Below, piece after piece: positions 175 to 15,808 of a stretch of DNA of 16,110 nt. This DNA is from Candidatus Micrarchaeota archaeon (GTDB lineage Archaea > Micrarchaeota > Micrarchaeia > Norongarragalinales > SBBD01): the NCBI GenBank assembly GCA_038046605.1, contig JBBSVW010000031.1:1-16110 (forward strand), given 5' to 3'. Below the pieces are notes generated by a model. That model saw only the letters and a program-made list of their open reading frames with translations. It did no database searches and was not told where the DNA came from. The stretch's first letter is position 1, and every line of letters begins with the position of its first letter. Position numbers and translations under genes: made by a program.

Positions 175-205
175 TCCTTTCTCGTCTTTCATTATGTTAT
201 TGCCG

Positions 206-244: not shown

Positions 245-330
245 TATTCGATTATATGCCCTCTTTGGTGCGCAATCCCAAGTATTTTGCCCCTCCGAGT
301 GCCGGATGCAGGATGCCAAGCGAAAAGCTT

Positions 331-353
331 ATAATAAACAAATTGTTTATTAT
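331..353. promoter_or_regulatory. 23-bp perfect inverted repeat, putative AbiEi autoregulatory operator
   Basis: ATAATAAACAA-A-TTGTTTATTAT overlaps a TTATAA TATA-like box and ends 3 nt before ATG 357. Confidence 0.7.
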
Positions 354-356
354 TGC

Positions 357-962
357 ATGTTTCAAAAGAAGATTACAGAACGTGTTCTGGAGGCAATCGA
401 ACACTCGCCAAAAGGCATCGCAAGTCTGGATGTATTGGCAAGCCTTAGGATATGTGGTCGGGATACCCTGAAGACGACTTTGAGCCGGCTAGGCATGACC
501 AATAGGTTAATTCACTTAAAGCGGGGCACATATTCCGTTAATCCTTTGAGGGATGCATTCTCGTGCGCCCAGAGCACGTTCAACGGCTATTTGGGCTTCA
601 CCTCCGCGCTTTATTTGCATAAACTCATAACGGAAATCCCGTTCTCAATTACCGTAGTTACAAACCATGTATCAAAGGGTAAACTGGTCGGAGAATTCTC
701 GTTTTTGGCGGTTGCATTGAATGAGAAGGCGGTAGGGTTCGAGAAACTTGGGGATTATGTTGTCTCTAGCCGCGCAAAGACGTTATTTGACTGCCTGTAT
801 TTGCCGAAATATTCCATTGAGCAAACTAAATTGATTGCCTCTTACAAGGAAGCAAAGCTTGGGAAAACCGAATGGAAGGATTTCGACGGATATGTGAAGA
901 AATTCGCTGGAGGAAAGAAGGAAAAAATGCTTCTGGTTAAACGGGAAATTCTGGGTGGTTGA
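357..962 (+). CDS. abiEi: Type IV toxin-antitoxin antitoxin, AbiEi-like transcriptional regulator
   Basis: N-terminal wHTH-like segment (TLKTTLSRL...LIHLKRGTY), YLGFTSALYLHKL and SRAKTLFDCL motifs; directly upstream of an AbiEii-like gene. Start moved from 306 to ATG 357, downstream of the TATA/operator. Confidence 0.8.
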   Translation: MFQKKITERVLEAIEHSPKGIASLDVLASLRICGRDTLKTTLSRLGMTNRLIHLKRGTYSVNPLRDAFSCAQSTFNGYLGFTSALYLHKLITEIPFSITVVTNHVSKGKLVGEFSFLAVALNEKAVGFEKLGDYVVSSRAKTLFDCLYLPKYSIEQTKLIASYKEAKLGKTEWKDFDGYVKKFAGGKKEKMLLVKREILGG

Positions 963-1748
963 ATGGAACTGAATCTTGAAGTCTGCAGGACCATTGCGGT
1001 GCAATACGGCCTTCCTTTGCAATATGTGATCAAGGAGTTTTACGTCTTCGATGTGCTTGGGCAGGTAACGGCCGCAACAATTGGGGAGAAAAACTTTGTC
1101 TTCAAGGGAGGAACCGCCTTGAACAAGGTCTACCTGGGGAAATTGCAACGGTTTTCGGAGGACCTGGATTTTGACTTTGAAGCAGCGGGCATTTCGGAGG
1201 TCAGGGAGAAATGCAAGAAGATAGCCGGTAAAATCGATGGCTATGAGATTGACGAATTCAGGAAAATCGGGGATACGATCCAATTTTATTGCAAATTTGA
1301 AAGCGTTCTTGGGGGAAGGGATCATGTGAGGGTCGATGTCGCCATGAAAAGGATAATTTCAGCAAAGCCGCAGATAATCAAGCCCGCGCAGTCGCTCTAC
1401 ACACAAAGGTCCGTTGCCGGGTTTTATGTATATTCCTTGGAGGATTTGACGGCAAGAAAGATGCATGCCTTAGGGACGCGTGCGGAAGGAAAGGATATTT
1501 ACGATGTATATAACGCCCTGCCTTTGTGCGGAAGTTTGGAACGCGCAATAGGGAAAATGCTCGAATCCGAAGGAATCAAAGAAAATGCGGAAGTATTCAT
1601 CAAAGATACTATCGCCAAGGTGAAGGCGCAGGATGGCAGAAAAATCCGGAATTTGGCAAACCCCTTCATACCAACAAGCAGCCGGCCAAAGGATTGGAGC
1701 CAGTTGAAAAACGACCTTGTGATGAGGTTGGAAAATTTGGTACACTGA
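963..1748 (+). CDS. abiEii: AbiEii/AbiGii-family nucleotidyltransferase toxin
   Basis: FKGGTAL, RFSEDLDF, ARKMHAL and KDIYD motifs; abuts the antitoxin stop (TGA-ATG) with a GGTGG SD-like sequence. Confidence 0.9.
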   Translation: MELNLEVCRTIAVQYGLPLQYVIKEFYVFDVLGQVTAATIGEKNFVFKGGTALNKVYLGKLQRFSEDLDFDFEAAGISEVREKCKKIAGKIDGYEIDEFRKIGDTIQFYCKFESVLGGRDHVRVDVAMKRIISAKPQIIKPAQSLYTQRSVAGFYVYSLEDLTARKMHALGTRAEGKDIYDVYNALPLCGSLERAIGKMLESEGIKENAEVFIKDTIAKVKAQDGRKIRNLANPFIPTSSRPKDWSQLKNDLVMRLENLVH

Positions 1749-1835
1749 TCAAATCTGTTGCCTCATCTGACGCACCAATTCTTGGCTTTCCAACTTATTT
1801 GCTGCTGCCATTTTTCTTATATTTCAGAAAAATCA

Positions 1836-1873
1836 CCCGTTTTCGCCGGTAGTTAAGTAATCGCCCCAGCGGC
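1836..1873 (+). repeat. Bipartite direct repeat, copy 2 (right of AbiE module)
   Basis: CCCGTTTTC (1836-1844) + 12 nt + GTAATCGCCCCAGCGGC (1857-1873). Confidence 0.7.
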
Positions 1874-1958
1874 ATCTTTTCCTAATGCGCACTTTTATAT
1901 GCTATTGGGGAAAAACACTTAACGTCACCATTTTTGATCCGTTCATGAAGTGTTCCAA

Positions 1959-2468
1959 ATGCCAGCTAGAAGGAGACGGCTAATAGCTTTTCATAAGATG
2001 GATCCAATTTGGCACGTGCCTATCCTCACCATTCCCAAGCGCCGCATAAGAATGATCCAGCACCTCGTGGAGAAAAGGCCACAAACGTTCGTAAGGATGT
2101 ACAACAAGCTTCGCCTAGTATATATGGGGAAATATGCCAAATTGCTAACGGAGTTGAAGGGGCACAACATTCATGCCGAAAGCAATATGCGTATAGTCGC
2201 TGAAAATTCAATGGGAGGCCATACGCAACATTACCTAGTCGGGATCTCGCATACGGAACCTGCAAACTTTAAAGGGGCCAAAAAATTACTCGTGGAGAGG
2301 AGGAAGGATCTTTACGTGAGGGAAAAATATCTTAGCGCATTTCGGAAGGCAGCGGAAGGCAGTCCCAATTTGAAACTTGCCGAAATTCAGCACGAAGTTC
2401 TAAGTGGAGTTGACCTGATCGACTATTATTTGGCTAACCCTAAATCGGGGTTGAGTTGGAGCTATTAA
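1959..2468 (+). CDS. Hypothetical basic protein
   Basis: ORF of about 169 aa filling the gap; ATG 1959 (MPARRRR) preferred over GTG 1950; no motif recognised. Confidence 0.6.
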   Translation: MPARRRRLIAFHKMDPIWHVPILTIPKRRIRMIQHLVEKRPQTFVRMYNKLRLVYMGKYAKLLTELKGHNIHAESNMRIVAENSMGGHTQHYLVGISHTEPANFKGAKKLLVERRKDLYVREKYLSAFRKAAEGSPNLKLAEIQHEVLSGVDLIDYYLANPKSGLSWSY

Positions 2469-2508
2469 TGAAATAAATCAACTTTTTATTTAGGAAAGGC
2501 AATCGCCC

Positions 2509-3414
2509 TTAATTTTTTGGTATAAGCCGAAGGCTTTTTGGGAGCCTATCTTGCAATGAGTAAAGGGCATCCATGTTGCGTTCTCCAAGCCCTCTTGAAA
2601 TTTCCCGGATTTGCGCAATAGATGCGACCCGTGCCATCCTTTGGGCGGCCTTAATGCCCAATTCCCCATTGCCAAGAATTGTAAGGCTATTGCCAATATA
2701 TTCTGCGAAAACTGCCCGCAACACTTCGTCATTGCTTATTTTGATCCCGGGTTTAGCCATTTTCCGGATTATCAGGGATGAGGCAAGGTTGATCCCTTCC
2801 CCATGGTTGCGGACCCTTGCCTGCGCACCAAATTTTTGCACCAGCATTCCGGCAGTTTTCCTTGCTTCGAGGCTATGGTTGAATCCTTGCCAAACCAGCA
2901 CATTCCCTCCCTTCCGGGCAAGGCCGCTTAATATCTCGGTTCGGATTTGATTCCTTATCCGGTTAAGGACAAGTTTTGAAGTGATTGCCTTTCGCATATA
3001 TGCTATCGATTCATTGGGATGCCCCCTAAGGAAAAGGATAAGGGCCGCTTTCCCCTGTTCATCATCATCAGGCAGTTGCTTTATCCGGGCAAGGCGGGAT
3101 TCCTTTAACGGCTCCAGTGCAACTATTTTATGGCCATTTTCGGCGGCATTCGCCAGGAACCTAAAGAACGGAGCCCAAAACCTCTCGGCATTGGGGTTTT
3201 TGTCATATTCCCCTGCAAGCCATCGGAGTTTTGCCGGATCACTTCGGTTGATTGCGTAATGTTCGTACATTGATAGGGGTGTTTCAATTGCAAGGGTGAG
3301 TTTCCCATGCTTCTTTTGGGCGGCTTCGAAATCCGCTTTGAGATGCACCAAATCCTGCGGCTCATTATGGTTGGAGAGGCTGAAGAAAAATGTCGGTTTG
3401 GGCCTTTCATCCAT
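2509..3414 (-). CDS. Hypothetical protein, possibly EreA/ChaN/TIKI-like fold
   Basis: Start set at ATG 3414 (MDERPKPT), about 25 bp downstream of a TTTTTAAAA box, which avoids overlap with the csp gene. Pattern FFFSLSNH ... LAIE ... VLVWQGFNH resembles the H/E/H layout of the superfamily. Confidence 0.6.
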   Translation of the reverse strand: MDERPKPTFFFSLSNHNEPQDLVHLKADFEAAQKKHGKLTLAIETPLSMYEHYAINRSDPAKLRWLAGEYDKNPNAERFWAPFFRFLANAAENGHKIVALEPLKESRLARIKQLPDDDEQGKAALILFLRGHPNESIAYMRKAITSKLVLNRIRNQIRTEILSGLARKGGNVLVWQGFNHSLEARKTAGMLVQKFGAQARVRNHGEGINLASSLIIRKMAKPGIKISNDEVLRAVFAEYIGNSLTILGNGELGIKAAQRMARVASIAQIREISRGLGERNMDALYSLQDRLPKSLRLIPKN

Positions 3415-3604
3415 GGAATGATGTTGTTTTGTGCGTTTTAAAAAAGTGCTGCCCTGCAAGATCCATTGAAGGCCCTGATTTGGCCAAAAACCCCCAAAAT
3501 GCCCAAATCCGCCAAAAGTCCGCCAAATTGCCCCGTTTCCCGTCAACTTGACCCCCTTATAAGCCTCTGCCCCCAAATATAATCTCGAAAATTTGGTGGT
3601 ATAA

Positions 3605-3796
3605 ATGAAAGGAAAAGTCAAGATGTTCAACACCGGCCGCGGTTTTGGATTCATAACTGGAGATGACGGAAAGGATGTTTACGTGCACACGACCGCAATC
3701 GAGGGCGGAGTTGCCCTTGAAATTGGGGATGCCGTTGAGTACGAAGTCGAATCAAGCGACAGGGGACTACGCGCGAAGGGAGTCAAGAAAGTCTGA
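3605..3796 (+). CDS. cspA: Cold-shock domain protein
   Basis: 63 aa; MKGKVKMFN, RNP1 GFGFI, RNP2 VYVH, C-terminal GLRAKGV. Confidence 0.95.
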   Translation: MKGKVKMFNTGRGFGFITGDDGKDVYVHTTAIEGGVALEIGDAVEYEVESSDRGLRAKGVKKV

Positions 3797-3817
3797 TTTC
3801 GCAAAATAGGCTTGGAA

Positions 3818-3858
3818 TCTAGCCTGTGCATCGGAATGCCGGCTAGAATTTATTTTTT
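3818..3858 (+). terminator. Putative hairpin plus T-tract terminator after csp
   Basis: TCTAGCC (3818-3824)/GGCTAGA (3841-3847) stem with inner GCAT/ATGC stem, followed by a T-rich tract. Confidence 0.5.
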
Positions 3859-4078
3859 CAGAGCTAGTTGTAGCTTTGTGCGGGCATCATTTTTGGAAAT
3901 ATGCCCCATAATTTATTTCCATTGTTCTTTACTTTTTTTGCTCTTCCACCTTTTTTTTCAATTTTTGGTTTTTCCATACGGTCCATAGTTTTATGCCCAT
4001 ATGCCAATTTTCCTGAATTTCCATCCATTCCGCCTCTTTCTCCTAAATCTATAAAAACTGCTGTTGAGTTGCAATACC

Positions 4079-5281
4079 ATGATCGAAGCATTAGCCCTCC
4101 TAGCATTCGTCCTATTTGCCGGCTATTTCTCCGAGCGGCTCTTTGCCAAATGGAAAATACCCGATATTTTCCCCCTGCTCTTGTTTGGCCTGCTCCTTGG
4201 ACCCATTGGCCTTGCCAGCAAGATCCCTGGGCTTGAAATATTGACGCCTGCCTACCTTGCCCCCGTTGCCGCCCTTGTTGCCGTCCTTACGCTTGTCGTG
4301 ATCCTTTTTGATGCGGGCGTTGGGCTTGACATATCCGAAATGATAAAGGCGGCCCCGTTTGCATTGACAGCAACGCTCATAAATTTCCTCGCAACAACAG
4401 CCGCATGCTTCCTTGCCCTTTACCTATCCGGCTGGAACTGGCTCCATGCGATCCTTGTTGCCATAATCGTTGCAGACACTGCAGAGGAGGTGGTGTTTTC
4501 CCTCATATCAAACCTGAAGCTTAAGCCCTGGGTCAAAAACCTCCTTGTTTTTGAGGGCGCATTCACAAGCACCCTGATTGGGATTTTTTCTATTGCCGTC
4601 ATTGGCATAACCGGCGGCAACCTATCCTTCAAGGAGATAGGCTCGGCGTTTGTCGGGAACATCGCAATCGCACTGCTTTTAGGCGCTGTTGTATCATATT
4701 TGTGGGTGCATGCGCTGGTATCGAACCATATCCGCTCCCACCGGTACCTTCTCACACTCGGGGTTGCATTCCTCCTGTATATAGGGGTTGAAGCGCTTGC
4801 GGCAAATGGGGTCATTGCGGTTTTGATTTTTGGGATAGCCATGGGGATGACGCGCGATAAGCTGGAAAAAAGCATATTCGAGTTCCATAGGGAAGTCAAT
4901 TTCACCGTCCGCTCCTTCTTTTTCGTCTACCTTGGCTTCATCATTTCATTTGACCAGCTAACAATCATAACAATCCTGACCTCCCTATTTGTTGTTGCTG
5001 CAATGGCCCTTGGCAGGCTTGCTGGCATGCAATATATCGCAAGGGAGCAATCCCCAACAAAGGCTGAATTCGTCCTTCTTGCCGGCGCGCTCCCTTCGGG
5101 GCTTGCAACAGCCGTCTTTGCAACCATCTTTTCAGCATATGGCATAATCATCCCGGGCCTTTCGGAATTCATTTTCCTCATAATCTTCGAATCGATCCTT
5201 TTGAGCATGGCCTGCACCTACTATTACGCATCGGTCAATATCATGCCTGAGCGCAGGCCCCAAATAATCAAAACAAACTGA
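4079..5281 (+). CDS. Cation:proton antiporter (CPA1/NhaP-like)
   Basis: About 400 aa, highly hydrophobic; KIPDIFPLLLFGLLLGP, ILFDAG, LVFEGAF, FFFVYLG and GLATAV segments. ATG 4079 preferred over TTG 4064. Confidence 0.85.
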   Translation: MIEALALLAFVLFAGYFSERLFAKWKIPDIFPLLLFGLLLGPIGLASKIPGLEILTPAYLAPVAALVAVLTLVVILFDAGVGLDISEMIKAAPFALTATLINFLATTAACFLALYLSGWNWLHAILVAIIVADTAEEVVFSLISNLKLKPWVKNLLVFEGAFTSTLIGIFSIAVIGITGGNLSFKEIGSAFVGNIAIALLLGAVVSYLWVHALVSNHIRSHRYLLTLGVAFLLYIGVEALAANGVIAVLIFGIAMGMTRDKLEKSIFEFHREVNFTVRSFFFVYLGFIISFDQLTIITILTSLFVVAAMALGRLAGMQYIAREQSPTKAEFVLLAGALPSGLATAVFATIFSAYGIIIPGLSEFIFLIIFESILLSMACTYYYASVNIMPERRPQIIKTN

Positions 5282-5319
5282 CCAAAATTTATACCCCAAT
5301 CGGATGGGTATTATCATGG

Positions 5320-6339
5320 ATGAAATCCGGACCGGTAATTGATATGGCAAAGGAACTACCAGCTGGGAAAGCGATCGTAGTGGCGATGATCTGCCTGATT
5401 TTGCTTTTCCAGCCTGCAAGCGCGGGATGCATCCCCAAAAAAGGATCGAATGGCTATCCCCTTGGCATCCAGCCAAATGTCACCAGCATAGATGTGGATT
5501 TCAATGATTTAACCCCCAGGAATTTCACCTTCAGCTTGTACATTGAATCAGAATTCGGGACGGCAATTGATCAAAGCTGCACCGTCCTGATGGCGGCAAT
5601 TTCCGACTACCCTGCATTGAAGGTTTCCCTTTCGAGGAATTCCCTTGAAACCGGCGCCGCCTCAAACAACAAGCCGATAACTGTTTTCCTAATGCCAATT
5701 GAGGGGGTTGATTTTCCGGAGACGATCACAGGCTCCATAAAAATTGCCGATTCCGAAGCGGGGCTTAATTTTGTCCTTTTGCCAATTAATGTTAAATTCC
5801 TTTTTCCTAGGCCATCAATTTCCCCAACGCCAATGCCCGAACCCACGGGGATACCTTTTGAATTCAATGATACGGGTGAGGAAGGCACAAGCCCCGATGC
5901 AATTTTGCCAACTCCCTTTCCGGCAGGGGAGGAAATAAACAGGACCATCGAAGAGCTAAATTCCAGCGGGGTTGATATCGCAGGGCCTATGGAGGATTTG
6001 AATGAGGCAAAAAAGCTCCAAAAGGAAGGGCGTATGGATCAGGCAAAAATCCTCGCCAGCGCCTCATATGCGGAATTAAGGCGGCTTTATACGGAGCTAG
6101 GGATTTCCAGGAAAATCTTCAGCTGGTATTTTGCGGCGTTCATAATCCTACTTGTTGCCCTCTTTGCGCTTAGGGATTTTTACCGCATCTCCCAGATGAG
6201 GAAAAAAGATGAGGAAACGCTTAACGTAGCTGATATTTATTCCGGCAAAGGGCAAACGCTAAATGCGATAAGTGTTGAACTAAAGGAAAAAGAGGAGGTT
6301 AATTTGCAGCAACCTAATTCACCGGATAAATTGCCATAG
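5320..6339 (+). CDS. Hypothetical secreted, C-terminally membrane-anchored protein
   Basis: Signal-like segment ending ASA, beta-rich region, Pro/Thr linker (PSISPTPMPEPT), helical region, TM helix (WYFAAFIILLVALFAL). Alternative start at 5344. Confidence 0.75.
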   Translation: MKSGPVIDMAKELPAGKAIVVAMICLILLFQPASAGCIPKKGSNGYPLGIQPNVTSIDVDFNDLTPRNFTFSLYIESEFGTAIDQSCTVLMAAISDYPALKVSLSRNSLETGAASNNKPITVFLMPIEGVDFPETITGSIKIADSEAGLNFVLLPINVKFLFPRPSISPTPMPEPTGIPFEFNDTGEEGTSPDAILPTPFPAGEEINRTIEELNSSGVDIAGPMEDLNEAKKLQKEGRMDQAKILASASYAELRRLYTELGISRKIFSWYFAAFIILLVALFALRDFYRISQMRKKDEETLNVADIYSGKGQTLNAISVELKEKEEVNLQQPNSPDKLP

Positions 6340-6394
6340 GGAGCACTTGCCCTGCCTTGGAAAATGCCCATACTATCTGTTGCCGATATTTTTT

Positions 6395-7288
6395 TTACCC
6401 ATTCGCCTTTTTTTGGGGCTGGAATTTATCCATCAGTGCCAGCCTCTCCTTGTTCCATTGCAGGACGATCGAATAAATGTAGGCTTGGGAATAAAGGGCC
6501 GCAAACACCTGAAGGGGATTTACAACCGCAGCTAGGAGGTTGGAAAAAATTCCAATGCCGATAATCATGTCCAATATTGAAAATATGGCCCAGGGAATAA
6601 ATGTCAATAGCCAAAATACTATTCCAATGCTTAGGGAAGAGACAAATAGCCTGGCAAAAAGGCTAACCGCATATCCCCTTGTGAGTGCATACGAGGTATC
6701 AACCGCCTGCGAAGGAGTGAGTGTATCGGAGGCGAAATAAGCAAAAAGGCTTTGGGAGAGCCTGATATTCATGAAAAAACTTGCGCCCCCGTAGGCAAAA
6801 AATAGCATTACACTAATGATCATCAAAAGGGGGTTGATTAGGGGCAAGATTATCGTTAACAATAGAACAAAGAGCCATTTCTTGTCATACCACATGAAAA
6901 ATGCCTTAAAGCCCGAAATGATGGCAACTAGGATTGCGCCCTTGCGTTTTTCGAGATTTGGCCATTTTGCGGCAACACCCGCCTTGTTCAATCCGTTTGC
7001 AATTACGCTGCCAATTATCAGCATTTGCACTATCCAGAATAAGACAATAATCGTGAGCATTGCCGCAAGCAAATATACCAGATAGCCAACGCTGAAATTG
7101 GGGTCGAGAGGGGATTTGAAGCTAGCCAGCATCCCAAGAAGGGGCGCAATAATTGCTGCAATGATCAATCCAAAGACCAGCAGGTATGCAAGGACGCAGA
7201 GCCCGTAGCTCTTCCAATTCTCCGAATCCTTTGTCCACTCGAATCCGAATTTGGCCGCCGCAAACGAATCCTCGAAGAAGTCTCCCAT
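6395..7288 (-). CDS. Hypothetical polytopic membrane protein
   Basis: 297 aa with about 6 hydrophobic segments; the 'QAVDTSYALTRG...LF' segment resembles DUF975-like membrane proteins; GGGGTG SD-like sequence upstream. Confidence 0.75.
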   Translation of the reverse strand: MGDFFEDSFAAAKFGFEWTKDSENWKSYGLCVLAYLLVFGLIIAAIIAPLLGMLASFKSPLDPNFSVGYLVYLLAAMLTIIVLFWIVQMLIIGSVIANGLNKAGVAAKWPNLEKRKGAILVAIISGFKAFFMWYDKKWLFVLLLTIILPLINPLLMIISVMLFFAYGGASFFMNIRLSQSLFAYFASDTLTPSQAVDTSYALTRGYAVSLFARLFVSSLSIGIVFWLLTFIPWAIFSILDMIIGIGIFSNLLAAVVNPLQVFAALYSQAYIYSIVLQWNKERLALMDKFQPQKKANG

Positions 7289-7475
7289 TGGAAAACACCC
7301 CTATAGCGAATAAGGCAATTATTGGAACTTTTTGTTGCCTTATTCTAATATAGCGGTCATATTTGATTGTTCCATTATTTTACTTAACCGCTATAAATAG
7401 AAATTTATTGGCGTATATTAGGGTTGTGATGGGAGGCTCTAAAAAAAAGCCATGCTGTTGCGTAGGCGGTTATTG

Positions 7476-7650
7476 ATTCGCAAAACTAATTAGAGGGGGT
7501 GGGGCGACATACCGAAGACAAAGTCTTCGTATGTTAGTAGACCTTGCAGGTCTACGTAACGCGGTAGGGGATGCACTAGAAACCCGTAGTTTCTAGGCAT
7601 GCTAAGAACCTTGGTGGTTCTGACGCAACCTAGTTCCCCCTTGGTGTCGA
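7476..7650 (-). ncRNA. Putative structured RNA immediately 3' of tRNA-Gly, homologous to the tRNA intron
   Basis: GC-rich island in an AT-rich spacer with four hairpins (GAACC/GGTTC, CTAGAAAC/GTTTCTAG, GTAGACCT/AGGTCTAC, GAAGAC/GTCTTC); three motifs shared with the intron. Strand is inferred from the tRNA. Confidence 0.55.
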
Positions 7651-7651
7651 G

Positions 7652-7805
7652 TGCGACTGCCGGGATTTTCAGACACACGCATATTCGCCTCCCCAAAAAG
7701 AGGGGGTAAGGCGACACGATAGGGGGATCCGTCCCCCTTTGTGTCATTTGAACCCGGGTCCCGAGATTGGCAACCTCGTGTCCTACCAGACTGGACTACA
7801 ATCGC
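7652..7805 (-). tRNA. tRNA-Gly(GCC) with a T-loop intron (exon 1 7805-7747, exon 2 7665-7652)
   Basis: Acceptor GCGATTG/CAGTCGC + A73; D arm GTCC/GGAC; anticodon arm CGAGG-TTGCCAA-TCTCG; T arm CCGGG-TTCAAAT-CCCGG restored after splicing. CCA is not encoded. A TATA-like TATATTAAA lies upstream. Confidence 0.93.
7666..7746 (-). other. 81-nt tRNA intron at position 59/60 with a canonical bulge-helix-bulge motif
   Basis: CCGGG-TTCA-AA^T-GACAC ... GTGTC-TGAA-AA^T-CCCGG: 4-bp central helix TTCA/TGAA and two 3-nt AAT bulges. Confidence 0.9.
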
Positions 7806-7926
7806 ATGAAGGCATACTTATGCAGGAAATAATTTAATATATGCTCCGAAAGGTATGATCGTCGTATTTTGCATTTACCAAATGGATGCTCCAGCGTTTT
7901 AATTCATTCCAGCAATATGGGATTGC

Positions 7927-9609
7927 CTACAATATCCACTTCGCAAGGAAGAATAGGGCAATTATCAGGATCATTCCGCCAAGCATCACGGCGTAATCGC
8001 CAGGTATATTTGCAAACTGATTTCCCTCCCCCGTACCCTGCGTTGCGCTAATTGATGATGAAGGCGCCCAGATGGGGGGCTGAATTGAAGCCATTAGTGA
8101 AAATTCAAATGGCTGGATGGTTTTTTTACCGGTCGTTTCAAGGCCAAATTCCCCTCTAAGCGTTTCTTCCCCCTCCAGCGGAACAAGTGAAAAAATGAAC
8201 TGCCTTTCAAGGCCTGCTCCGAGTGCCACAGGCTGCGATTGGCTTTGGTGATTTTGGCTTTCCATTGAAATGCTGCCAGCCGCCTCGATGTTGCCCGTGT
8301 TTTTCACAGTCACAGCGATTTGAATACCACTCCCTGTTTTAGCACTCGAAATTCCCGTAATTTTCAATTCCTCGTTTTTTTGCACATCTCCCTCATCCGA
8401 TGCGCGGATCGTGCCAGTTGCATCCTGCCCAAGGCTCTCAATTAGTACCGGGAACTTGTATTCGTAACCCGATTCGAGCTTGGGTATGATGACCTTCCAT
8501 TCGACCTCCTTTTCCTCGTAGGGTTCTAGCAAAACAAGCTTGTCCTCGTTGACCAAGTTTTCCCCGGAAATTTTCACCTCCGGGGGAAGAAGGAGCGATA
8601 GGGGAACTGCCAGGCGATTGCCCTTGTTCGAAACCCTCGCCTTTATGGCTTCAATTGAGCCCTGCCCCACCTCGCTTTCCGGAAGAATCAATTGCAGGGT
8701 GAAGAGCTCCGGGAAATTTCGCACCTCATTGAATTTGACATCAAAATCCCTTGTCAGCTTCACCTTCGAAACATCGGCATTGTAGCTCCTGATCGAAATA
8801 TCCTCCTTGATATCCGCCTGATCAAACCCTTCGCCGAATTTGAGGTGGGTCGCATCCAGGATGATCCCTTCATTGAAGGTTGGATCGAAGGGTATCCACT
8901 CCCCATCAATTGCCGCCTCCACAAATGCGTGGGCGCCCCAATCGGTTCCGCTGTAAACGTATGATGCCGCAAATTTGGCGGGAATGCCAATCGATCTAAG
9001 CATTGCAATGAACAGGTGCGAAAACTCATCGCATGTGCCCGCCCTTTCCGACATCACCGCATCCGAACCCTTGACGACATTGATGTAATTGCGGTCGTAC
9101 TTTACATTATTGTGCACCCATTGCGCAATCGCAACCGCTTTTTCCATATCCGTTTTGTAGTTGGATGCGATCTGCGATGCCTTCTGCTTAATTTCAGGGG
9201 TTATTTTAATGTAGGCGCTTTCCTTGAGGTAATTCGAGGCATCGGTTGCCTTCGCAAAATCAAAGCCAAACTGCACCTTGAGCTCTGTTTGCATGGAAAA
9301 GCCCTGGAAATCCTTCTTTGGGTCCAAGTCGAAAACCAAAACCCCGTTCTTGAATGCATTGGTTTCGGTGTATGCGGGAATAGAAGTGGTTTCGTAGAGC
9401 CTTTGCTGTGAGGGATAATTCCCAAATTCGAAAGTCTTGATCTGGAGCTCCGAAAGTTCCTGCCCCTGCAGATCTATGTTCCAGCTAAGATTTACAGTTG
9501 CCCTAGCGTAACCAGTTTTCTTTGGCTTGATCCCCTCATCCGCAGCGAAGGCTAGGGGCAAGAGCAGTGCAAAAATGGCTAGAAGGCAAATGAGGCGGAT
9601 CCCTTTCAT
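7927..9609 (-). CDS. Secreted transglutaminase-like domain protein with Ig/CARDB-like C-terminal domains and a TM anchor
   Basis: Signal peptide from ATG 9609 (MKGIRLICLLAIFALLLPLAFA); Cys-His-Asp triad motifs GTCDEFS, AHAFVE, WIPFDPT; VTVKNTGN; C-terminal TM helix. Confidence 0.88.
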   Translation of the reverse strand: MKGIRLICLLAIFALLLPLAFAADEGIKPKKTGYARATVNLSWNIDLQGQELSELQIKTFEFGNYPSQQRLYETTSIPAYTETNAFKNGVLVFDLDPKKDFQGFSMQTELKVQFGFDFAKATDASNYLKESAYIKITPEIKQKASQIASNYKTDMEKAVAIAQWVHNNVKYDRNYINVVKGSDAVMSERAGTCDEFSHLFIAMLRSIGIPAKFAASYVYSGTDWGAHAFVEAAIDGEWIPFDPTFNEGIILDATHLKFGEGFDQADIKEDISIRSYNADVSKVKLTRDFDVKFNEVRNFPELFTLQLILPESEVGQGSIEAIKARVSNKGNRLAVPLSLLLPPEVKISGENLVNEDKLVLLEPYEEKEVEWKVIIPKLESGYEYKFPVLIESLGQDATGTIRASDEGDVQKNEELKITGISSAKTGSGIQIAVTVKNTGNIEAAGSISMESQNHQSQSQPVALGAGLERQFIFSLVPLEGEETLRGEFGLETTGKKTIQPFEFSLMASIQPPIWAPSSSISATQGTGEGNQFANIPGDYAVMLGGMILIIALFFLAKWIL

Positions 9610-9684
9610 ATGGTACTTTTCGGTTCCCTGCCATTTAATTAGTTTCGTTTTTGTGTACATTCGTTTTGTTGCCGCATAGTGGGT

Positions 9685-9716
9685 TTTACTTCCTAAATAG
9701 TTTGCTTCCTAAATAG
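9685..9716. repeat. Tandem 16-bp repeat x2
   Basis: TTTACTTCCTAAATAG / TTTGCTTCCTAAATAG, bracketed by TAGTGGGT at 9677-9684 and 9720-9727. Confidence 0.75.
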
Positions 9717-9762
9717 GTTTAGTGGGTAACTTAGGGCGCCTTCATCCTCCTAGCCATTTAAT

Positions 9763-11025
9763 TCATCCATACTCGGCATCCTTTCCCAGCATCCCTTCTA
9801 TCCTAAGCAGCCGGTTGTATTTTGCCGTGCGCTCCCCCCTTGCCGGTGCGCCGAGTTTAATTTGGCCGCATCCAAGCCCGACTGCAAGGTCCGCTATGAA
9901 TGCATCCTCAGTTTCCCCCGACCTGTGGGAAACCATGACCCCCCAGCCGTTCTTGAATGCGTAATTTGCCGCAACAATACTTTCCGTAAGGGTTCCAATC
10001 TGGTTTACCTTAAGGAGAAGGCAATTTGCGCTTTTTTTAAGCACGGCGGTTTTCAGCCTTGAAATATTCGTGACTGTCAGGTCATCGGCAACAATTTGCA
10101 CCTTGCCCCCAATCCGCTTTGTCAACCGTGCGAAGCTTCCAAATTCATCCTCGGAAAAGGGATCCTCTAGGGAAATGATTTTATATGTGCGGATGAGCTG
10201 CGAATAATATTCGGATAATTCCTCCGGGGCCATTTTCCTTCCATCGATTTCGTATTTCCCATTTTTGAAAAATTCGGAAGCGGCCGCATCAATTGCGAGT
10301 TTTACCTCCTTAGGATAGCCCACTTCGTCAATTGCTTTCTGTATCATTTCCAGGCCTTCATCCGTGCGCTTCAGAGGCGGGGCAAATCCGCCCTCATCCC
10401 CCACATTAACCGCGCTTTTGCCATATTTTTCCTTCAAGTCAGCCTTTAGCTTGCCATATACTTCACTTACCATCCTTGCGCCCTCATAAAAGCCCTTTGC
10501 CCCAACTGGCGCAACCATGAACTCCTGGATTTTCAAATCATTCCCTGCATGGACCCCGCCATTGATGATGTTTGAAAAAGGGACGGGCATGAGGAAAGTT
10601 TTTCCGTTGCCCCTTCCTGACATTTTTGCGATGTTTTTGAAAAGTTCCATGCCGCTGAAAAGCGCATTTGCCCTTGCCGCTGCCAGGGAAACTGCAAGGA
10701 TGGCATTTGCCCCAAGCCTCCCCTTGTTTTTAGTGCCGTCCAAATCAATAAGTGCGGAATCAATTTCCTTTTGGGCTGATGCATCCATTCCGATAAGTTT
10801 TTTTGCAATTGGCCCATTGATGTTTTTTACCGCCCTCAAAACCCCCTTTCCCCCAAAGCGTTTTTCGCCATCCCGCAATTCGATTGCCTCATGGGATCCC
10901 GTGCTCGCTCCGGATGGCACAATTGCGCTTGCCATTCTCCCATCCGCGAGAGTGATTTCGCACTCCACCGTTGGGCAACCCCTCGAATCAAGCACCTCCC
11001 TTCCAATTATTTTTTTCATTTGCAT
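9763..11025 (-). CDS. eno: Enolase (phosphopyruvate hydratase)
   Basis: LDSRGxPTVE, PSGASTG, GANAIL, GDEGGF, LLKVNQIG, SHRSGETED and ERTAKYN motifs. Confidence 0.98.
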   Translation of the reverse strand: MQMKKIIGREVLDSRGCPTVECEITLADGRMASAIVPSGASTGSHEAIELRDGEKRFGGKGVLRAVKNINGPIAKKLIGMDASAQKEIDSALIDLDGTKNKGRLGANAILAVSLAAARANALFSGMELFKNIAKMSGRGNGKTFLMPVPFSNIINGGVHAGNDLKIQEFMVAPVGAKGFYEGARMVSEVYGKLKADLKEKYGKSAVNVGDEGGFAPPLKRTDEGLEMIQKAIDEVGYPKEVKLAIDAAASEFFKNGKYEIDGRKMAPEELSEYYSQLIRTYKIISLEDPFSEDEFGSFARLTKRIGGKVQIVADDLTVTNISRLKTAVLKKSANCLLLKVNQIGTLTESIVAANYAFKNGWGVMVSHRSGETEDAFIADLAVGLGCGQIKLGAPARGERTAKYNRLLRIEGMLGKDAEYG

Positions 11026-11098
11026 ATTTCGACCACTTCAATGCATGGGGTTGATCCATATTATAATTCCAATCCTCCATTCCCCAAGTTAAAATCAT

Positions 11099-11755
11099 TC
11101 AAGAAAAGATGCTTGCGCCGATTTTTTGGCCCCCTTCAATCCAGCCCTCGAAATTTGTATATTCATTGATTAGCGCGTCCAGGAACGCCCCAAATGTGGA
11201 TGGGTAGGCATATGCGAGCAATAGGAATGCGATGAAACCGGAGATTACGCCGTAATCAAACCAGCGCATCTCAAGCGGATCCTTTTCACGGAAGGGGTTT
11301 GAGCGTTTCACGCTTTCTTCCGCAATGCCCGTGATTTTCAAGAGGTGGGCAAATCTGCTATATCGCAGGAAGATGAGCGCAAATACGGTTGCGATCAGGA
11401 TGTTGAATATTTTTACCGCCCCAACATACATGAAAACCGCCATTATTCCTCCGATGAAGAACACCAGGCGGTAAAAGCTTTTCATCCCTGCAATCATTGC
11501 CTTTTCGCTGGTAGTTACCATCTGCTTTGAAAGATGCCATATCTGGTTTGCCTCGTGGTCTGAAAAGCCTTCGGATAGCAGATAATACTTGCAGATGATG
11601 TAGTCCTTTCCCTGCATGCGCATTTCCTTTACGCTTTTTATGGCTTTGAGCGTTTTTTCGGAAAGGGAGTTTTTTTGCGGGACTTGCGGCGCCTCCTCCT
11701 TTGCGATAGGCGCCTTTTCAATAATCTGGGAAATTGTTGGAGCCATATATCCCAT
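11099..11755 (-). CDS. Hypothetical membrane protein
   Basis: 218 aa; soluble N-terminal helical region followed by about 3 TM segments; co-oriented upstream of eno. Confidence 0.7.
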   Translation of the reverse strand: MGYMAPTISQIIEKAPIAKEEAPQVPQKNSLSEKTLKAIKSVKEMRMQGKDYIICKYYLLSEGFSDHEANQIWHLSKQMVTTSEKAMIAGMKSFYRLVFFIGGIMAVFMYVGAVKIFNILIATVFALIFLRYSRFAHLLKITGIAEESVKRSNPFREKDPLEMRWFDYGVISGFIAFLLLAYAYPSTFGAFLDALINEYTNFEGWIEGGQKIGASIFS

Positions 11756-11843
11756 TAGATAGTTTTGCTTAATTTAAACATTCCTTTGGCACTCGAAATG
11801 ACCTTGGGATTGATATTAAAAGCAATTCGCGCAAAAAAGGATT

Positions 11844-13040
11844 ATGGAAAGCGATTTCTACGGGCAACCGCTCACGGATCTATATCGTTTTAAGAGCCCC
11901 CGCGAAAAGCTCCTCTCGCAACTTGTGATCAATTCGCATTTAAAGCCCCTGAAAAAGGAGATGTTTGGCCCAACACCCCCAAACATTTTTGTGGGAAGGG
12001 TTGGGTACCCTTCAGTTTACGTGGGCCCACTTGTTGGCGCGGATGAGGGCATTGATGCGGCGCTTTATGATAATCCAAGGGGCTGGTATGGCCTTCCAAT
12101 TGAAGAAATTGTGAAATTCCGATCATCGCTAGTGCGCGGAAAAAAACTCGAGCATGTGAAAAAAAGCCGGGAGCTTCTTGATTTGCAGGATAGCGTGCTC
12201 TCGCAAAAAGCCGTGGACATGGAGGTGAATTTCAAAAAGCCCCCTTCCATGGGCGTGTATTTCCATTCCACTTTCCAGCCCATGGGCCCAACTGCCGAAT
12301 ATGTGAATTTGCGCCTGGTAGGCAATCCCCAAATCCCAAGGAAGGTCGATTCCGTTATTTCCGAGGGGCTAAAGGCGCGGGAGGGCTTTGAGGAATTGAT
12401 GCGCCATAAATTCGATGTCTACTACCTCCAAAAGCTGCTCTCTGCAGGGCTGCTTGGCGAAACTCAAAAGAAAAAGCTTGTGCCGACAAGATGGAGCATT
12501 ACTGCTGCGGATAAAATCGCAGCCGATATTTTCATCGAACAAGTGCGCACTCTCAAATCCGTAAATGAAATCCAGCTCTACACAAACACCTATCTGGCAA
12601 ACCATTTCGAAATCCTTTTGCTTCCCGGCAACTGGGAATTCGAGCAGTTCGAGAATTGGGAGGGGGGCATTAGCTGCAACAAAACAAAGGAATGGTTTTT
12701 GGAACATGAATATGAGCCATTCGAGGGACGGAGTGATTATGCAAAAAGCGAGGGCGGGGGCTACTATGCCGGAAGGCTTTCGGTTGCGGAATATCTTGCA
12801 TCATCCCTCAAAAGGCAGGCGCGCGCTGTTGTGATCCGCGAAATCCACAAGGAATACGATGTGCCTGTTGGGGTTTGGGAAATTAGGGAAAATGTAAGGC
12901 ACGCCCTTGCCAAAGAGCCAGTGAAATGCGCATCCCTTGAGGAGGCAAAATCGCTCCTTTGCACTCGCCTTAGGAATCCGCCGGAACTGTACTTTCAAAA
13001 GAGCAGGATTTTGCCGCAAAGGAAGCTTGTTGATTTTTGA
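11844..13040 (+). CDS. nreA: Nre-family archaeal DNA repair protein with a C-terminal PIP box
   Basis: IFVGRVGYPxVxVGPL, PMGP, LSAGLLG, KLVPTRWSITAAD, GGYYAGR, PVGVWEIRENVR; ends QRKLVDF. Confidence 0.92.
   Translation: MESDFYGQPLTDLYRFKSPREKLLSQLVINSHLKPLKKEMFGPTPPNIFVGRVGYPSVYVGPLVGADEGIDAALYDNPRGWYGLPIEEIVKFRSSLVRGKKLEHVKKSRELLDLQDSVLSQKAVDMEVNFKKPPSMGVYFHSTFQPMGPTAEYVNLRLVGNPQIPRKVDSVISEGLKAREGFEELMRHKFDVYYLQKLLSAGLLGETQKKKLVPTRWSITAADKIAADIFIEQVRTLKSVNEIQLYTNTYLANHFEILLLPGNWEFEQFENWEGGISCNKTKEWFLEHEYEPFEGRSDYAKSEGGGYYAGRLSVAEYLASSLKRQARAVVIREIHKEYDVPVGVWEIRENVRHALAKEPVKCASLEEAKSLLCTRLRNPPELYFQKSRILPQRKLVDF
13011..13038 (+). repeat. 28-bp direct repeat, copy 1 (3' end of nreA)
   Basis: TTGCCGCAAAGGAAGCTTGTTGATTTTT, identical to 13639-13666. 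Confidence 0.95.
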
Positions 13041-13070
13041 AGCTTTGAGGAAGGTTTATATTATATAAGG

Positions 13071-13088
13071 TTAATTAATATTAATTAA
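13071..13088. promoter_or_regulatory. 18-bp perfect palindrome, putative antitoxin operator
   Basis: TTAATTAATATTAATTAA lies between a TATA-like box (TTTATATT at 13055) and the SD-like AGGTGA (13088-13093). Confidence 0.6.
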
Positions 13089-13098
13089 GGTGATATGC

Positions 13099-13326
13099 GT
13101 GGCAATTAAAACATTCAACATTGCGGAAAATGTCTACGAGCAGTTTTCTGCATTCTGCAAAGAAAGGGGCCTAAGCATGAGCAGGCAGGTGCAATTTTTC
13201 ATGGAAAATTTCATTGAGAATGAACCCGAAGCAAGGGTTGATTATTTGGCAAAATTGGAAGAGATACGTAAGGGGAAATTCATTAAAGTTAGAAGTTTCG
13301 CCTCGCGCTACGGGCTGGATAAATGA
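13099..13326 (+). CDS. Ribbon-helix-helix-type antitoxin
   Basis: KTFNI strand, then ENVYEQFSAFCKERG helix and SMSRQVQFFM helix; overlaps the toxin start. GTG 13099 follows AGGTGA. Confidence 0.75.
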   Translation: MAIKTFNIAENVYEQFSAFCKERGLSMSRQVQFFMENFIENEPEARVDYLAKLEEIRKGKFIKVRSFASRYGLDK

Positions 13327-13586
13327 AATATTCCCTTGTTATCGGTGATAAGGCCGATCGCATATTCAAAAAGATGGAGAAGAAGGACCGCCAAAGACTC
13401 AAGATGGTAAACAGAAAAGTAGACGAAATACTACAAAACCCAATCCATTACAAGCCCCTTCGCGGCGATCTACATGGCGCTAGACGAGTTCACATTGATA
13501 GGTCATTTGTATTGATATTTGAGGTTGACGAAAAAAATCAGATCGTAAAGCTGCTAGATTTCGACCATCATGATGATATCTATTAA
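13323..13586 (+). CDS. relE: RelE/ParE/YafQ-superfamily type II toxin
   Basis: 87 aa basic protein; NPxHYKPLRGDLHGARRVHI and FVLIFEVD...FDHHDDIY. Confidence 0.88.
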   Translation: MKYSLVIGDKADRIFKKMEKKDRQRLKMVNRKVDEILQNPIHYKPLRGDLHGARRVHIDRSFVLIFEVDEKNQIVKLLDFDHHDDIY

Positions 13587-13638
13587 TGCATAGCGTTGGG
13601 TCAATTCTTCAAACCCCATTTCTGGCAATTTGTGCATC

Positions 13639-13666
13639 TTGCCGCAAAGGAAGCTTGTTGATTTTT
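13639..13666 (+). repeat. 28-bp direct repeat, copy 2 (orphan copy of the nreA end)
   Basis: Identical to 13011-13038; with its flanks it reads ILPQRKLVDF-TAG. Confidence 0.95.
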
Positions 13667-13733
13667 AGTTGCGTTTCCAAAGAGGTGAAACCCTTAAAAA
13701 TCTCTGTTGAGTGGTAATTGCGGGAATATTTCC

Positions 13734-14576
13734 ATGAGAGGACTTTTTCTTTTGGGATTGCTAATTTTGCTTGCTATGCCTATTGCCAATGCCGCTGACA
13801 ACGTTGGCCATGTCCTCGTAGTACAGCCCATCCAAAAGCAGATTTTTGAAGGCGAAGTGCTTGATCTTGGGCTAGTTGGGCCCGGCCAAAAAGTCGAGCT
13901 TGAAATTTCAAGGAGCTCGAATATTTACGATTTCCGGAATGTGGAGGAGGTTTGGGATAGGCTCAAGATCGACGACAATACGCTTCCGGATTTCTGGCGA
14001 TCCGAATATTCACTTCGCTATGAGGCAAACCCCAAGGCGTTTGTTATTGTCGATTCCGATGCGCCCGATGGCGAGTATGAGTTTTCCCTGCATACCGAGC
14101 GCGACTACGGCGATGCCTCGAAAAATCCTGTAAGGTTCATGGCAAAAATACTGGTAAGGCGGGATGTTCTTGATTTGCAGGTTCTAAGCAAAAATGTCAA
14201 TGGGGGCGTTGAACAGCCATCCGAATTCACCATAAAGCTTGTAAACATGGGCAGCGCAAACGATGCTTTTGAGCTGGAAGTTGTTTCCGGCCTGCCAAAT
14301 GAATGGCGCTTCAAAAAGCAGGTCTTCATTCCACACAATTCCGAAAAAATCATTCCTTATGAGCTTGTGGCAAAAGAGCAGATTGATGAGCAGATAGTTT
14401 TCAAGGCAACTTCGCTTTCATCGACTTCAATAACCGATTCCGATTCTGGCTCATTATCGACTAGGAGCAGCCTTTTGCAGGATATGAAATCCGTGGGCAA
14501 CGGCGTCCTGCTGTTCCCAAACATCGAGATGGCAGTCTATTACCTGATGGGATTTGTTGCGAGCAACTTTTTCTGA
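13734..14576 (+). CDS. Hypothetical secreted protein with Ig-like (COG1470/NEW3-like) character
   Basis: Signal peptide from ATG 13734 (MRGLFLLGLLILLAMPIANA); FTIKLVNMGSANDAFEL...GLPNEW motif; hydrophobic C-terminus. Confidence 0.75.
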   Translation: MRGLFLLGLLILLAMPIANAADNVGHVLVVQPIQKQIFEGEVLDLGLVGPGQKVELEISRSSNIYDFRNVEEVWDRLKIDDNTLPDFWRSEYSLRYEANPKAFVIVDSDAPDGEYEFSLHTERDYGDASKNPVRFMAKILVRRDVLDLQVLSKNVNGGVEQPSEFTIKLVNMGSANDAFELEVVSGLPNEWRFKKQVFIPHNSEKIIPYELVAKEQIDEQIVFKATSLSSTSITDSDSGSLSTRSSLLQDMKSVGNGVLLFPNIEMAVYYLMGFVASNFF

Positions 14577-14578
14577 AA

Positions 14579-15792: not shown

Positions 15793-15808
15793 TAGTATCA
15801 GAAAAGTT

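Follow-up and report, generated by a model that had tools for sequence, protein, structure and literature searches.

A tRNA-Gly intron and 3' trailer as probable insertions of one small mobile element in a lineage of Micrarchaeota

Introduction

By what route archaeal tRNA genes acquire introns is an open problem, for which one genus described here offers a concrete and datable case. The 'transposition' of tRNA introns in Thermoproteales was reportedly described by Fujishima et al. in 2010. In excerpts of a 2014 review (PMC4090602) and of a preprint (10.64898/2026.10.13.758758), related introns of Thermoproteales are found in tRNAs of different identity and at non-canonical positions, always with a bulge-helix-bulge (BHB) motif, and the same part of the review calls the mechanism of this transposition unknown. 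The present case comes from a stretch of 16,110 nt (contig JBBSVW010000031.1, positions 1 to 16,110 of the forward strand, in assembly GCA_038046605.1; the window), in which a tRNA-Gly(GCC) gene carries an intron and is followed by a 3' trailer, both containing the same small element. The genome (G000) is a 1.64 Mb assembly of the Micrarchaeota (DPANN), 90.7% complete and with a G+C content of 46.8%, and the flanking genes of the window (Nre, Trm1 and enolase) likewise indicate an archaeal origin. Intron and trailer were interpreted, with a probability of roughly 0.8, as the outcome of one small mobile element, non-coding and non-autonomous, having inserted twice independently, and the intron copy is best read as a direct case of tRNA intron gain. 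As in Thermoproteales, related introns occur in different tRNAs, namely tRNA-Gly(GCC) and a second tRNA of G000, tRNA-Arg(CCU) of genome G003 and tRNA-Gly(CCC) of genome G001. In contrast to that case, the intron family here doubles as an intergenic repeat spread over the genome, for which target-site duplications and empty sites were found, and its hosts belong to DPANN and not to Thermoproteota.

The element shares traits with several classes of mobile DNA. Like MITEs (miniature inverted-repeat transposable elements) and repetitive extragenic palindromic (REP/REPIN) sequences, it is small, non-coding, multi-copy, mostly intergenic, non-autonomous and hairpin-forming, and it can nest. Unlike them, it lacks terminal inverted repeats, its duplications are long and variable (11-67 bp), its right end varies and no cognate transposase or REP-associated tyrosine transposase (RAYT) was found. 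It was not classed as a MITE, since its ends, GACACC and GCGAAT (or a variable sequence), are not inverted repeats and its duplications are neither short nor fixed; a true MITE in the neighbourhood, at 7302-7397 and with TATAGCG ends, looks quite different. Short interspersed nuclear elements (SINEs) and processed retrocopies, eukaryotic products of target-primed reverse transcription, are short and tRNA-linked, with variable duplications, 3' microhomology, a complete 5' end and divergence from their source. The element resembles SINEs in being short and tRNA-linked and in its variable duplications, 3' microhomology, complete 5' end and diverged copies, but differs in having no A-tail and in that RVT_1 was found in none of seven genomes of the genus, other reverse transcriptase-like folds lying outside the search; to our knowledge, retroposition of the SINE type is not known in prokaryotes. 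An archaeal tRNA-Trp intron carries a box C/D small RNA that is released by splicing. The element is similarly an RNA unit carried in a BHB intron, but it has neither C/D nor H/ACA boxes, has no Rfam match (E <= 10) and is not confined to introns.

Two described transposons come close in their footprints. According to the available part of a preprint (10.1101/2022.12.15.520654), Replitron-1/N1, an HUH Rep transposon of Chlamydomonas, combines a left end that is precise with a right end that is fuzzy, carrying extra sequence of varying length, and its target duplications vary in length too; sharp left end, ragged right end and variable duplications were all found in the element. IS1549/IS1634 likewise produces long and variable direct repeats (8-514 bp), for which the part of PMC2266710 at hand offers no model. 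As described in these excerpts, Replitron-1 and IS1549/IS1634 are autonomous units of at least 1.5 kb, or deletion derivatives of such, with a known transposase, whereas the element is 40-100 nt long and neither Rep nor DDE nor any other enzyme was found for it. Moreover, when compared with the extra 3' sequence reported in that portion of the preprint for Replitron-1, the 3' extensions of the element had no source that could be found in a parental flank. A unit of tens of nucleotides with duplications of up to 67 bp, one sharp and one ragged end is unusual for a prokaryote.

Results and discussion

A BHB intron in the T-loop of tRNA-Gly(GCC)

The features of the tRNA gene and of its intron are as follows, where P1 and P2 denote the two helices of the element described below.

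7747..7805, minus strand: tRNA-Gly(GCC) exon 1 (positions 1-59), from reading of the sequence, with a partial Rfam tRNA match at 7743-7805
7666..7746, minus strand: BHB intron of 81 nt at T-loop position 59/60, from sequence reading, fold and absence in orthologues
7652..7665, minus strand: tRNA-Gly exon 2 (T60, T-stem 3' strand, acceptor 3' strand, discriminator A), the same as the 3' end in G003 and G001
7683..7746, minus strand: element copy 1, in the short full form (P1 5' strand, P2 hairpin, P1 3' strand, C-rich tail, GCGAAT), from a covariance model match and alignment
7666..7682, minus strand: 3' extension of the intron, 17 nt, which gives GTGTC and TGAA, the intron-side strands of the BHB

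All window coordinates of tRNA, intron and trailer features refer to the minus strand. The T-stem 5' strand (7757-7753) and T-loop (7752-7746) precede 81 nt of non-tRNA sequence, after which the T-stem 3' strand, acceptor and discriminator follow at 7664-7652. Joining the exons gives a 73-nt tRNA-Gly(GCC) whose T-arm/T-loop and 3' end match those in G003 and G001, where the gene is uninterrupted; such few differences as there are fall elsewhere in exon 1, which is 95-98% identical to these orthologues. ARAGORN and the Rfam tRNA model recognised the gene only in part and in distorted form. The 94-nt tRNA called by ARAGORN at 7713-7806 was rejected as a mis-parse of the interrupted gene, and an 85-aa minus-strand open reading frame (ORF) at 7490-7747, spanning intron, exon 2 and trailer element, was set aside as an artefact of ORF listing. 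No second copy of exon 1 was found by BLAST in the assembly at its completeness of 90.7%.

The intron borders show the hBHBh' architecture of archaeal tRNA introns, with 3-nt bulges, a 4-bp helix and flanking helices. The outer helix consists of the T-stem strand CCGGG (7757-7753) opposite CCCGG, the central 4-bp helix of TTCA (7752-7749) paired with TGAA (7671-7668), and the inner helix of GACAC (7745-7741) paired with GTGTC (7676-7672), while the bulges are two AAT triplets on opposite strands (7748-7746 and 7667-7665). In the minimum free energy (MFE) fold of RNAfold, the outer T-stem and the inner helix were found and the middle was left as a 7x7 loop. If the cut is made behind the second base of the bulge, the intron spans 7746-7666, position 59/60, with borders that are able to slide inside the repeated AAT. 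The 17-nt extension has no counterpart in other copies, as BLAST matched only the 5' part of the intron. A copy in the T-loop would be expected to kill the tRNA gene, and apparently does not because the 5' GACAC of the element and the 17-nt extension build the BHB. Judged by its structure, the intron copy should in principle be spliceable. Both enzymes for such a reaction are encoded in the genome: the splicing endonuclease tRNA_int_endo on contig C20 (75.5 bits, two domains in a single 395-aa frame) and the RNA ligase RtcB on C28 (569 bits). The two-domain frame resembles the single-chain enzyme that an excerpt of PMC3488258 reports for Candidatus Micrarchaeum. Excision by the endonuclease and RtcB would, we infer, keep the sole tRNA-Gly(GCC) gene seen in the assembly working. 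As a separate observation, a copy of the element begins 4 nt past the stop codon of the endonuclease gene itself (C20:907-1527).

The trailer copy and its nested inserts

The preliminary description of this DNA had pointed out that intron and trailer share three motifs in the same order, and the motifs were found at the positions it gave. Motif A lies at 7745-7732 and 7648-7635 (13/14 identical) and motif B at 7716-7699 and 7509-7492 (16/18), while motif C, GCGAAT, follows exactly 10 nt past B in both copies (7688-7683 and 7481-7476); A and B are 15 nt apart in the intron and 125 nt apart in the trailer. The composite A/B/C patterns occur at exactly two places in the window, as against a mean of 0.00 and a maximum of 0 in 200 dinucleotide-preserving shuffles. 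The proposed context, a tRNA intron and a 3' trailer, was borne out by the exon/intron borders and the uninterrupted orthologues. That the two are versions of one element is supported by a covariance model (R1) built from 32 short copies, which were 31 other genomic copies and the intron copy, with the trailer left out: it scored 51.4 bits on the intron (C31:7675-7753, E 6.5e-10) and 44.2 bits on the 3' part of the trailer (7468-7543). The picture of a conserved core with variable inserts held up as well, as seen from the features of the trailer.

7476..7649, minus strand: element copy 2 in the 3' trailer, its core split by two nested inserts, from motifs, covariance model and fold
7571..7626, minus strand: nested insert 1, two hairpins inside the P2 loop, with BLAST matches at many places in G000-G006
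7510..7559, minus strand: nested insert 2, a pair of hairpins that divides the P1 3' strand between G7560 and T7509
7441..7448, minus strand: run of eight T residues (T8), 27 nt past the trailer element

The trailer copy starts at 7649, 2 nt past the discriminator, and its GCGAAT end lies at 7476. The unit of insert 1 (about 56 nt; positions 181-244 of the BLAST query) is present in reverse complement within the copies at C9:56853-57007 and C32:2540-2703, and by this distribution it is evidently a separate, dispersed mobile mini-element that nests in the main element in either orientation. The region of insert 2 (query positions 241-307) also gave matches, and related or different two-hairpin segments occupy the same point in the copies at C9:23161, C73:31696, C79:39495 and C82:4588. 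Oligo-T terminates archaeal transcription, and the T8 run is likely the terminator of the tRNA unit. The tRNA transcript would then take in the trailer copy and reach to the T8 run, and RNase Z would remove the copy during 3' processing. The suggestion that one pre-tRNA yields two RNAs, one through the splicing endonuclease and one through RNase Z, is plausible as a side effect, and any such RNAs would most likely be by-products.

Intron gain and turnover among relatives

The orthologous tRNA-Gly(GCC) gene is free of introns in G003 and G001 of the same genus and also in G007 of another genus. In G002 and G008 the tRNA-Gly has an intact T-loop and a different intron at 37/38, and in G006 it has a D-arm intron together with an unrelated 32-nt T-loop intron; intron turnover in this gene is therefore fast. 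Among the genomes seen, the intron of the window is species-specific and represents a recent gain. The trailer element is not present after the tRNA-Gly genes of G003 or G007.

The nearest relative of the intron is not the trailer copy but the T-loop intron of another tRNA of G000 on contig C26, probably a tRNA-Asp as identified by eye only. The two introns are 92% identical over the first 63 nt, a match that includes 14 nt of exon, and their 3' parts are unlike, each with the 4 nt that are complementary to the T-loop it sits in (TGAA and CGGA, respectively). The design recurs beyond this second tRNA of G000: the intron of tRNA-Arg(CCU) in G003 carries CGAA, and tRNA-Gly(CCC) of G001 shares the central 4-bp helix with bulges that are not AAT.

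A second small repeat of the genus, a T-rich/A-rich hairpin unit ending in CAAGGC, was similarly seen both as tRNA intron and as tRNA trailer. It forms an intron in the D-loop of a tRNA on C106 (G000 C106:10500-11300), at 37/38 of the tRNA-Gly of G002 and in the tRNA-Gly of G006; where it lies in a trailer (G003 tRNA-Gly; G000 C9:22983-23160), a partial duplicate of the tRNA 3' end follows. The duality of intron and trailer is therefore not limited to one repeat family in the genus.

Structure and size of the element family

A genome search with motif A found further exact copies, and the family proved not to be a private pair of the window: iterated nhmmer gave 86 matches, and the covariance model 87 at E <= 0.01 in the 1.64 Mb genome, or 84 copies after merging. 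Without nested inserts, the inserted piece measures about 40-100 nt. Rfam 15 had no match for the family; in the window there were 0 matches at the gathering score, and at E <= 10 only one weak tRNA match and others at chance level. The consensus starts with a pyrimidine, the P1 5' strand GACAC (variants AACAC, AACCC and GACAAAA) and a 3-nt loop, continues with P2, in which a purine G-run is paired over a 3-5-nt loop with a C-run, and a further 3-nt loop, and closes with the P1 3' strand GTGTC-G, after which come CC, 3-4 nt, another C-run and a T-rich stretch whose end is often GCGAAT. The core thus described has two stacked helices, P1 (Y)GACAC/GTGTC(G) and P2, separated by a small internal loop.

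Covariation was strong in both helices. Among 32 copies from this genome (alignment A1), 93.5% of the cells were paired and 10 of 14 pairs had changed on both sides, which none of 500 shuffles reached; the corresponding figures for 58 copies from other metagenome-assembled genomes (MAGs; alignment A2) were 91.8% and 8 of 14, with 0 or 1 of 500 shuffles reaching the observed pairing, depending on the measure. Pairing was lost in both alignments when the partner strand was slid. In P1 of A1, all cells pair (100%) and three pairs show compensatory change (G-C to A-U, A-U to C-G and C-G to A-U).

An H-type pseudoknot had been proposed for the element, and in that form it is not supported. Its GACA(C)/(G)TGTC helix covaries; the G-run, on the other hand, has a nested partner, and its pairing with the tail C-run is only an alternative. 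What had been counted as 15 nt separating A from B in the intron makes up the P2 3' strand and belongs to a simple G-run hairpin (AGGGGGA-loop-TCCCCCT), which the preliminary description had missed; the core is therefore nested and not necessarily knotted. The length of the tail C-run tracks that of the G-run (Spearman 0.50) and equals it in 55% of the copies compared with 29% after shuffling, while the nested P2 partner correlates better (Spearman 0.79). In the MFE fold of the insert-bearing trailer, where the P2 strands are parted by the inserts, the G-run pairs with the tail C-run. A pseudoknot between these two runs is possible, and shared descent of subfamilies could also give the correlation in length. 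With few subfamilies, a parallel, triplex-like arrangement of the tail C-run along the P2 purine strand looks the same as antiparallel pairing or shared descent.

The strand that folds was not singled out by the mismatches. A U.G closing pair is seen in 38 of 90 copies and pair 18-40 is A.C in 33 of 90, and apart from two edge pairs the helices contain 14 G.U and 15 A.C mismatches. A structure specific to the sense strand was accordingly dropped, as A.C mismatches are about as common as G.U.

A composite 'twin' form was seen at five loci (C89:9940-10050, C26:8871-8953, C55:12434-12547, C76:12938-13011 and C89:16770-16879): an outer copy harbours, between its P2 and its P1 3' strand, a short inner copy that has the hairpin and C-run but lacks the T-rich tail. 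Outer and inner copy seem to spread together, as one composite unit.

Genomic distribution of the copies

Gene calls for the placement of copies were crude, consisting of the longest ORFs and the Rfam tRNA matches. The 84 merged copies comprise 74 between two called genes, 4 inside an ORF or tRNA span, 5 at contig ends and 1 in the intron. With respect to the element, the upstream and downstream genes of the 74 intergenic copies are oriented +/+ in 16 cases, +/- in 23, -/- in 16 and -/+ in 19, so both orientations and promoter-side positions are common. Among the 39 copies behind a co-oriented gene, 20 start between -5 and +6 nt from its end (8 tRNAs and 12 ORFs); the tRNA count includes the trailer copy of the window, which is otherwise listed by its 3' half and was assigned manually to a distance of 2 nt. 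In another 13 copies, the 3' end is at most 10 nt from, or at most 15 nt inside, the end of a convergent gene. The T-GA or T-AA of the element is often used as a stop codon.

In G001 and G003, elements are likewise found directly after, before or inside tRNA genes. Some copies upstream of tRNA genes were seen to be bracketed by duplicates of the tRNA 5' end, of 11 nt in G001 (C2:32380-32700) and 24 nt in G003 (C6:186520-186760). One arrangement before a tRNA is common to G000 (C9 near 51000) and G003, and some insertions therefore predate the split of these species.

Beyond this genome, copies occur in at least 10 other MAGs. The covariance model matched 11 of 151 sampled genomes of the phylum, strongly only in the family of the genome G000 (4 of 4 genomes) and in two genomes of the order. 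A pattern scan of named records gave 43 loci, of which 35 are labelled Candidatus Micrarchaeota and 6 'archaeon', with 1 from Candidatus Norongarragalinales (an order within Micrarchaeia) and 1 from Laspinema; in viral contigs the family pattern had 0 matches. Among the Micrarchaeota, a group of the DPANN archaea, one lineage has seen the element multiply. The Laspinema contig, read over 264 nt and from a MAG binned as cyanobacterial, contains one copy of the family (37.8 bits with the covariance model), for which a binning error is more likely than a true occurrence.

Target duplications and empty sites

Exact direct repeats of at least 11 nt (range 11-42) flank 17 of 72 copies in this genome, where a control with reversed flanks gave at most 9 nt. 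At the loci from other MAGs, 31 of 50 copies have repeats of 11-67 nt, compared with 1 of 50 (13 nt) in the reversed-flank control. On the left, the repeat abuts the 5' end of the element, and the bases left over between the two number 0-6 in most copies and 24 in a single one. The right repeat begins 37-196 nt further on, which makes the 5' end of the element sharp and its 3' end ragged. The 5' end is precise at GACACC or AACACC, while GCGAAT is often followed by 15-50 nt of unrelated sequence.

The empty sites of relatives, which contain the segment once, prove the repeats to be target duplications. One case is the antisense copy at C55:21526, where a 36-nt repeat, corresponding to the last 12 codons of a 496-aa gene, is doubled around an element that adds one extra codon and a stop; in 5 of 5 genomes of the same genus, the 36-mer is single and the stop codon comes next. 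Similarly, the 29-nt repeat at C76:3117 is single in G002. A chaperonin-like gene has the copy at C44:2073 between its stop codon and its T-rich terminator, and 5 of 5 relatives lack this copy; the copy at C89:9940, whose start lies within the TGA of a permease gene, is likewise missing from all 4 relatives that were read. The preliminary description had left the choice between a functional non-coding RNA family and a mobile element; with target-site duplications, empty sites and copies in both orientations, the mobile element is the favoured half, and an RNA function is less favoured.

Short homologies were found at the right junctions. In 6 of the 8 shortest duplication-flanked inserts, which are truncated at the 3' end, the family hidden Markov model runs 2-12 nt into the right repeat, as it does in the control for 2 of the same 8, which places the junction in short homology between tail and target. 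One example is C26:10951, where the T-loop CAAAT faces the GC(G/A)AAT of the element. In the 5' flanks of the copies in A1, no homology to the GCGAAT end was seen by eye.

Search for a mobilising enzyme

The genus was searched with domain models. RVT_1 was found in none of its 7 genomes (84-91% complete), and Phage_integrase, present in 5 of the 7, was not found in G000. A single gene with an HUH domain of the Y1_Tnp type is encoded in G000 (C9:24297-24650); Y1_Tnp was not found in the copy-rich G001 (at least 28 copies) or G003 (18 copies), each 91% complete, and it occurs in 17 of 61 genomes of the order. As regards a Rep/HUH gene acting in trans, Y1_Tnp is thus present only in G000 among the copy-rich genomes. 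Searches for IS91 Y2 (Y2_Tnp) and Viral_Rep gave no match, the control genomes being equally silent, and no TnpB zinc ribbon was found. The hairpins flanking the Y1 gene are G+C-rich and unrelated to the element. By eye, the gene itself is far more G+C-rich than the genome (46.8%), and it looks like a separately acquired IS200-type element.

Weighing of the explanations

Several findings weigh against two insertions of one mobile element. The two copies of the window show no target duplication beyond AAAT at the intron, and the case for their mobility therefore rests on the empty sites in relatives. Duplication-flanked inserts are only 84-98% identical to their nearest paralogue, BLAST of the 17 such inserts found no identical or extension-bearing parent in the genome, and a search of 11 genomes of the family for the insert at C18:5596 yielded no source of its 3' extension either. 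The domain searches described above linked neither a transposase nor a reverse transcriptase to the element. A further difficulty is that an insertion into a T-loop has to acquire its exact 4-nt complement for the BHB; it is possible that an already adapted, excised intron spreads into a tRNA with the same T-loop, and also possible that selection acts among many failed insertions, aided by an endonuclease of broad specificity. Finally, strong covariation, a conserved tail and recurrence after tRNA-Lys and tRNA-Gly genes in several genomes are compatible with a function of the RNA.

These last features lead to the alternative that survives best, a functional structured RNA, either a 3'-end module acting in cis to stabilise, terminate or process the transcripts of protein and tRNA genes, or a small RNA set free from pre-tRNA by the splicing endonuclease and RNase Z and acting in trans, with spread being secondary. 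Covariation of both helices, the conserved single-stranded tail with a C-run that tracks the G-run, and the 20 copies that begin within 6 nt of a co-oriented gene end would all fit. Moreover, the trailers of tRNA-Lys genes (G000, G001 and G003) and of tRNA-Gly genes (G000, G001 and G002) carry an element with hairpin and C-run whose P1 sequences differ while the architecture is the same. Nevertheless, 35 of the 74 classified copies are not behind a co-oriented gene and 19 lie between divergent genes, antisense copies such as C55:21526 are found at gene ends too, insertions are marked by long target duplications and by empty orthologous sites in close relatives, and the helix mismatches (14 G.U against 15 A.C) do not single out the sense strand. 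We consider this explanation unlikely.

A REP/REPIN-like hairpin, or a palindrome-associated transposable element (PATE) derived from IS200/IS605, moved as single-stranded DNA by the single Y1 transposase of the genome, would account for the imperfect hairpin with its internal loop, the lack of terminal inverted repeats, the intergenic spread and the presence of one Y1_Tnp gene. Target duplications are long and frequent here, however, whereas IS200/IS605, IS91 and Helitrons are generally without them according to the portion of preprint 10.1101/2022.12.15.520654 at hand. With Y1_Tnp not found in G001 and G003, and the hairpins that flank the Y1 gene unrelated to the element, membership in the REP/RAYT or IS200/IS605 PATE class was rejected and this origin is very unlikely. 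It is highly improbable that the tRNA-adjacent copies are att scars left by integrase-mediated integration of larger elements. Partial duplicates of tRNA ends do occur at such copies (19-20 nt at C26:10951 and C9:23161, 11 nt in G001 C2, 24 and 38 nt in G003), but the same duplications flank copies at protein-gene ends and in intergenic DNA, only 37-196 nt lie between the repeats, G000 has no Phage_integrase match and viral contigs gave no match to the pattern. That the intron was copied locally into the trailer, or the reverse, as a one-off without a wider family, is suggested by the distance of 97 nt between two copies in one transcription unit and was named in the preliminary description as the outcome that would undo its proposal, but with 84-87 copies on many contigs, at least 10 other MAGs with copies and an intron closest to that of C26, it is refuted.

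A possible route of insertion

If intron and trailer are insertions of a mobile element, the footprints suggest a copy-and-paste route from a single-stranded template with a fixed 5' end, RNA and DNA having roughly equal odds as the template. The 3' junction would form by annealing of short homology between tail and target, for instance GC(G/A)AAT with the T-loop CAAAT, and insertion would take place into widely staggered nicks. A long duplication leaves one intact gene or tRNA end, which is why many copies abut stop codons and tRNA ends. By supplying stop codons and duplicating gene ends, the element can settle in the compact genome of a DPANN symbiont without breaking genes. The intron copy would have entered the T-loop with duplication of at most 4 nt (AAAT) and be viable through the BHB.

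A more specific version, which we regard as doubtful, would make the element a prokaryotic counterpart of SINEs, with the 5' end of the RNA set by RNase Z or the splicing endonuclease and target-primed copying into staggered nicks that starts at the tail homology. The variable duplications and homology-assisted 3' junctions expected of such a unit were both found, the microhomology in 6 of the 8 shortest inserts only. If this version were true, a T-loop, which as a target resembles GCGAAT, would receive a new and immediately spliceable tRNA intron, and the long-sought route by which archaeal tRNA introns arrive would operate without a recognisable reverse transcriptase.

The value of these findings lies in connecting a tRNA intron of recent gain with a dispersed repeat that is mobile and has left fresh footprints. 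The tRNA-Gly(GCC) gene is intact in two congeners and interrupted here by a repeat whose other copies bear such footprints, and intron gain thereby becomes open to study through insertion polymorphisms in metagenomes. In a literature search of titles and abstract openings, mostly at the level of listings and with supplements outside its scope, no description of the element was found.

Neighbouring features of the window

Between the terminator of the trailer and the next ORF lies the 95-nt MITE at 7302-7397, with inverted ends TATAGCG/CGCTATA and at least 12 near-full copies, 87-100% identical, elsewhere among the contigs. This MITE is also present, in another context, in a contig of the RNA library run X9, the one run that matched the window, and did so only at 7301-7395. 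At 306-1748 of the window, a 218-aa ORF with no Pfam match is directly followed by the gene of an AbiEii nucleotidyltransferase toxin (963-1748, Pfam E 6e-26), for which the ORF may be the antitoxin partner.

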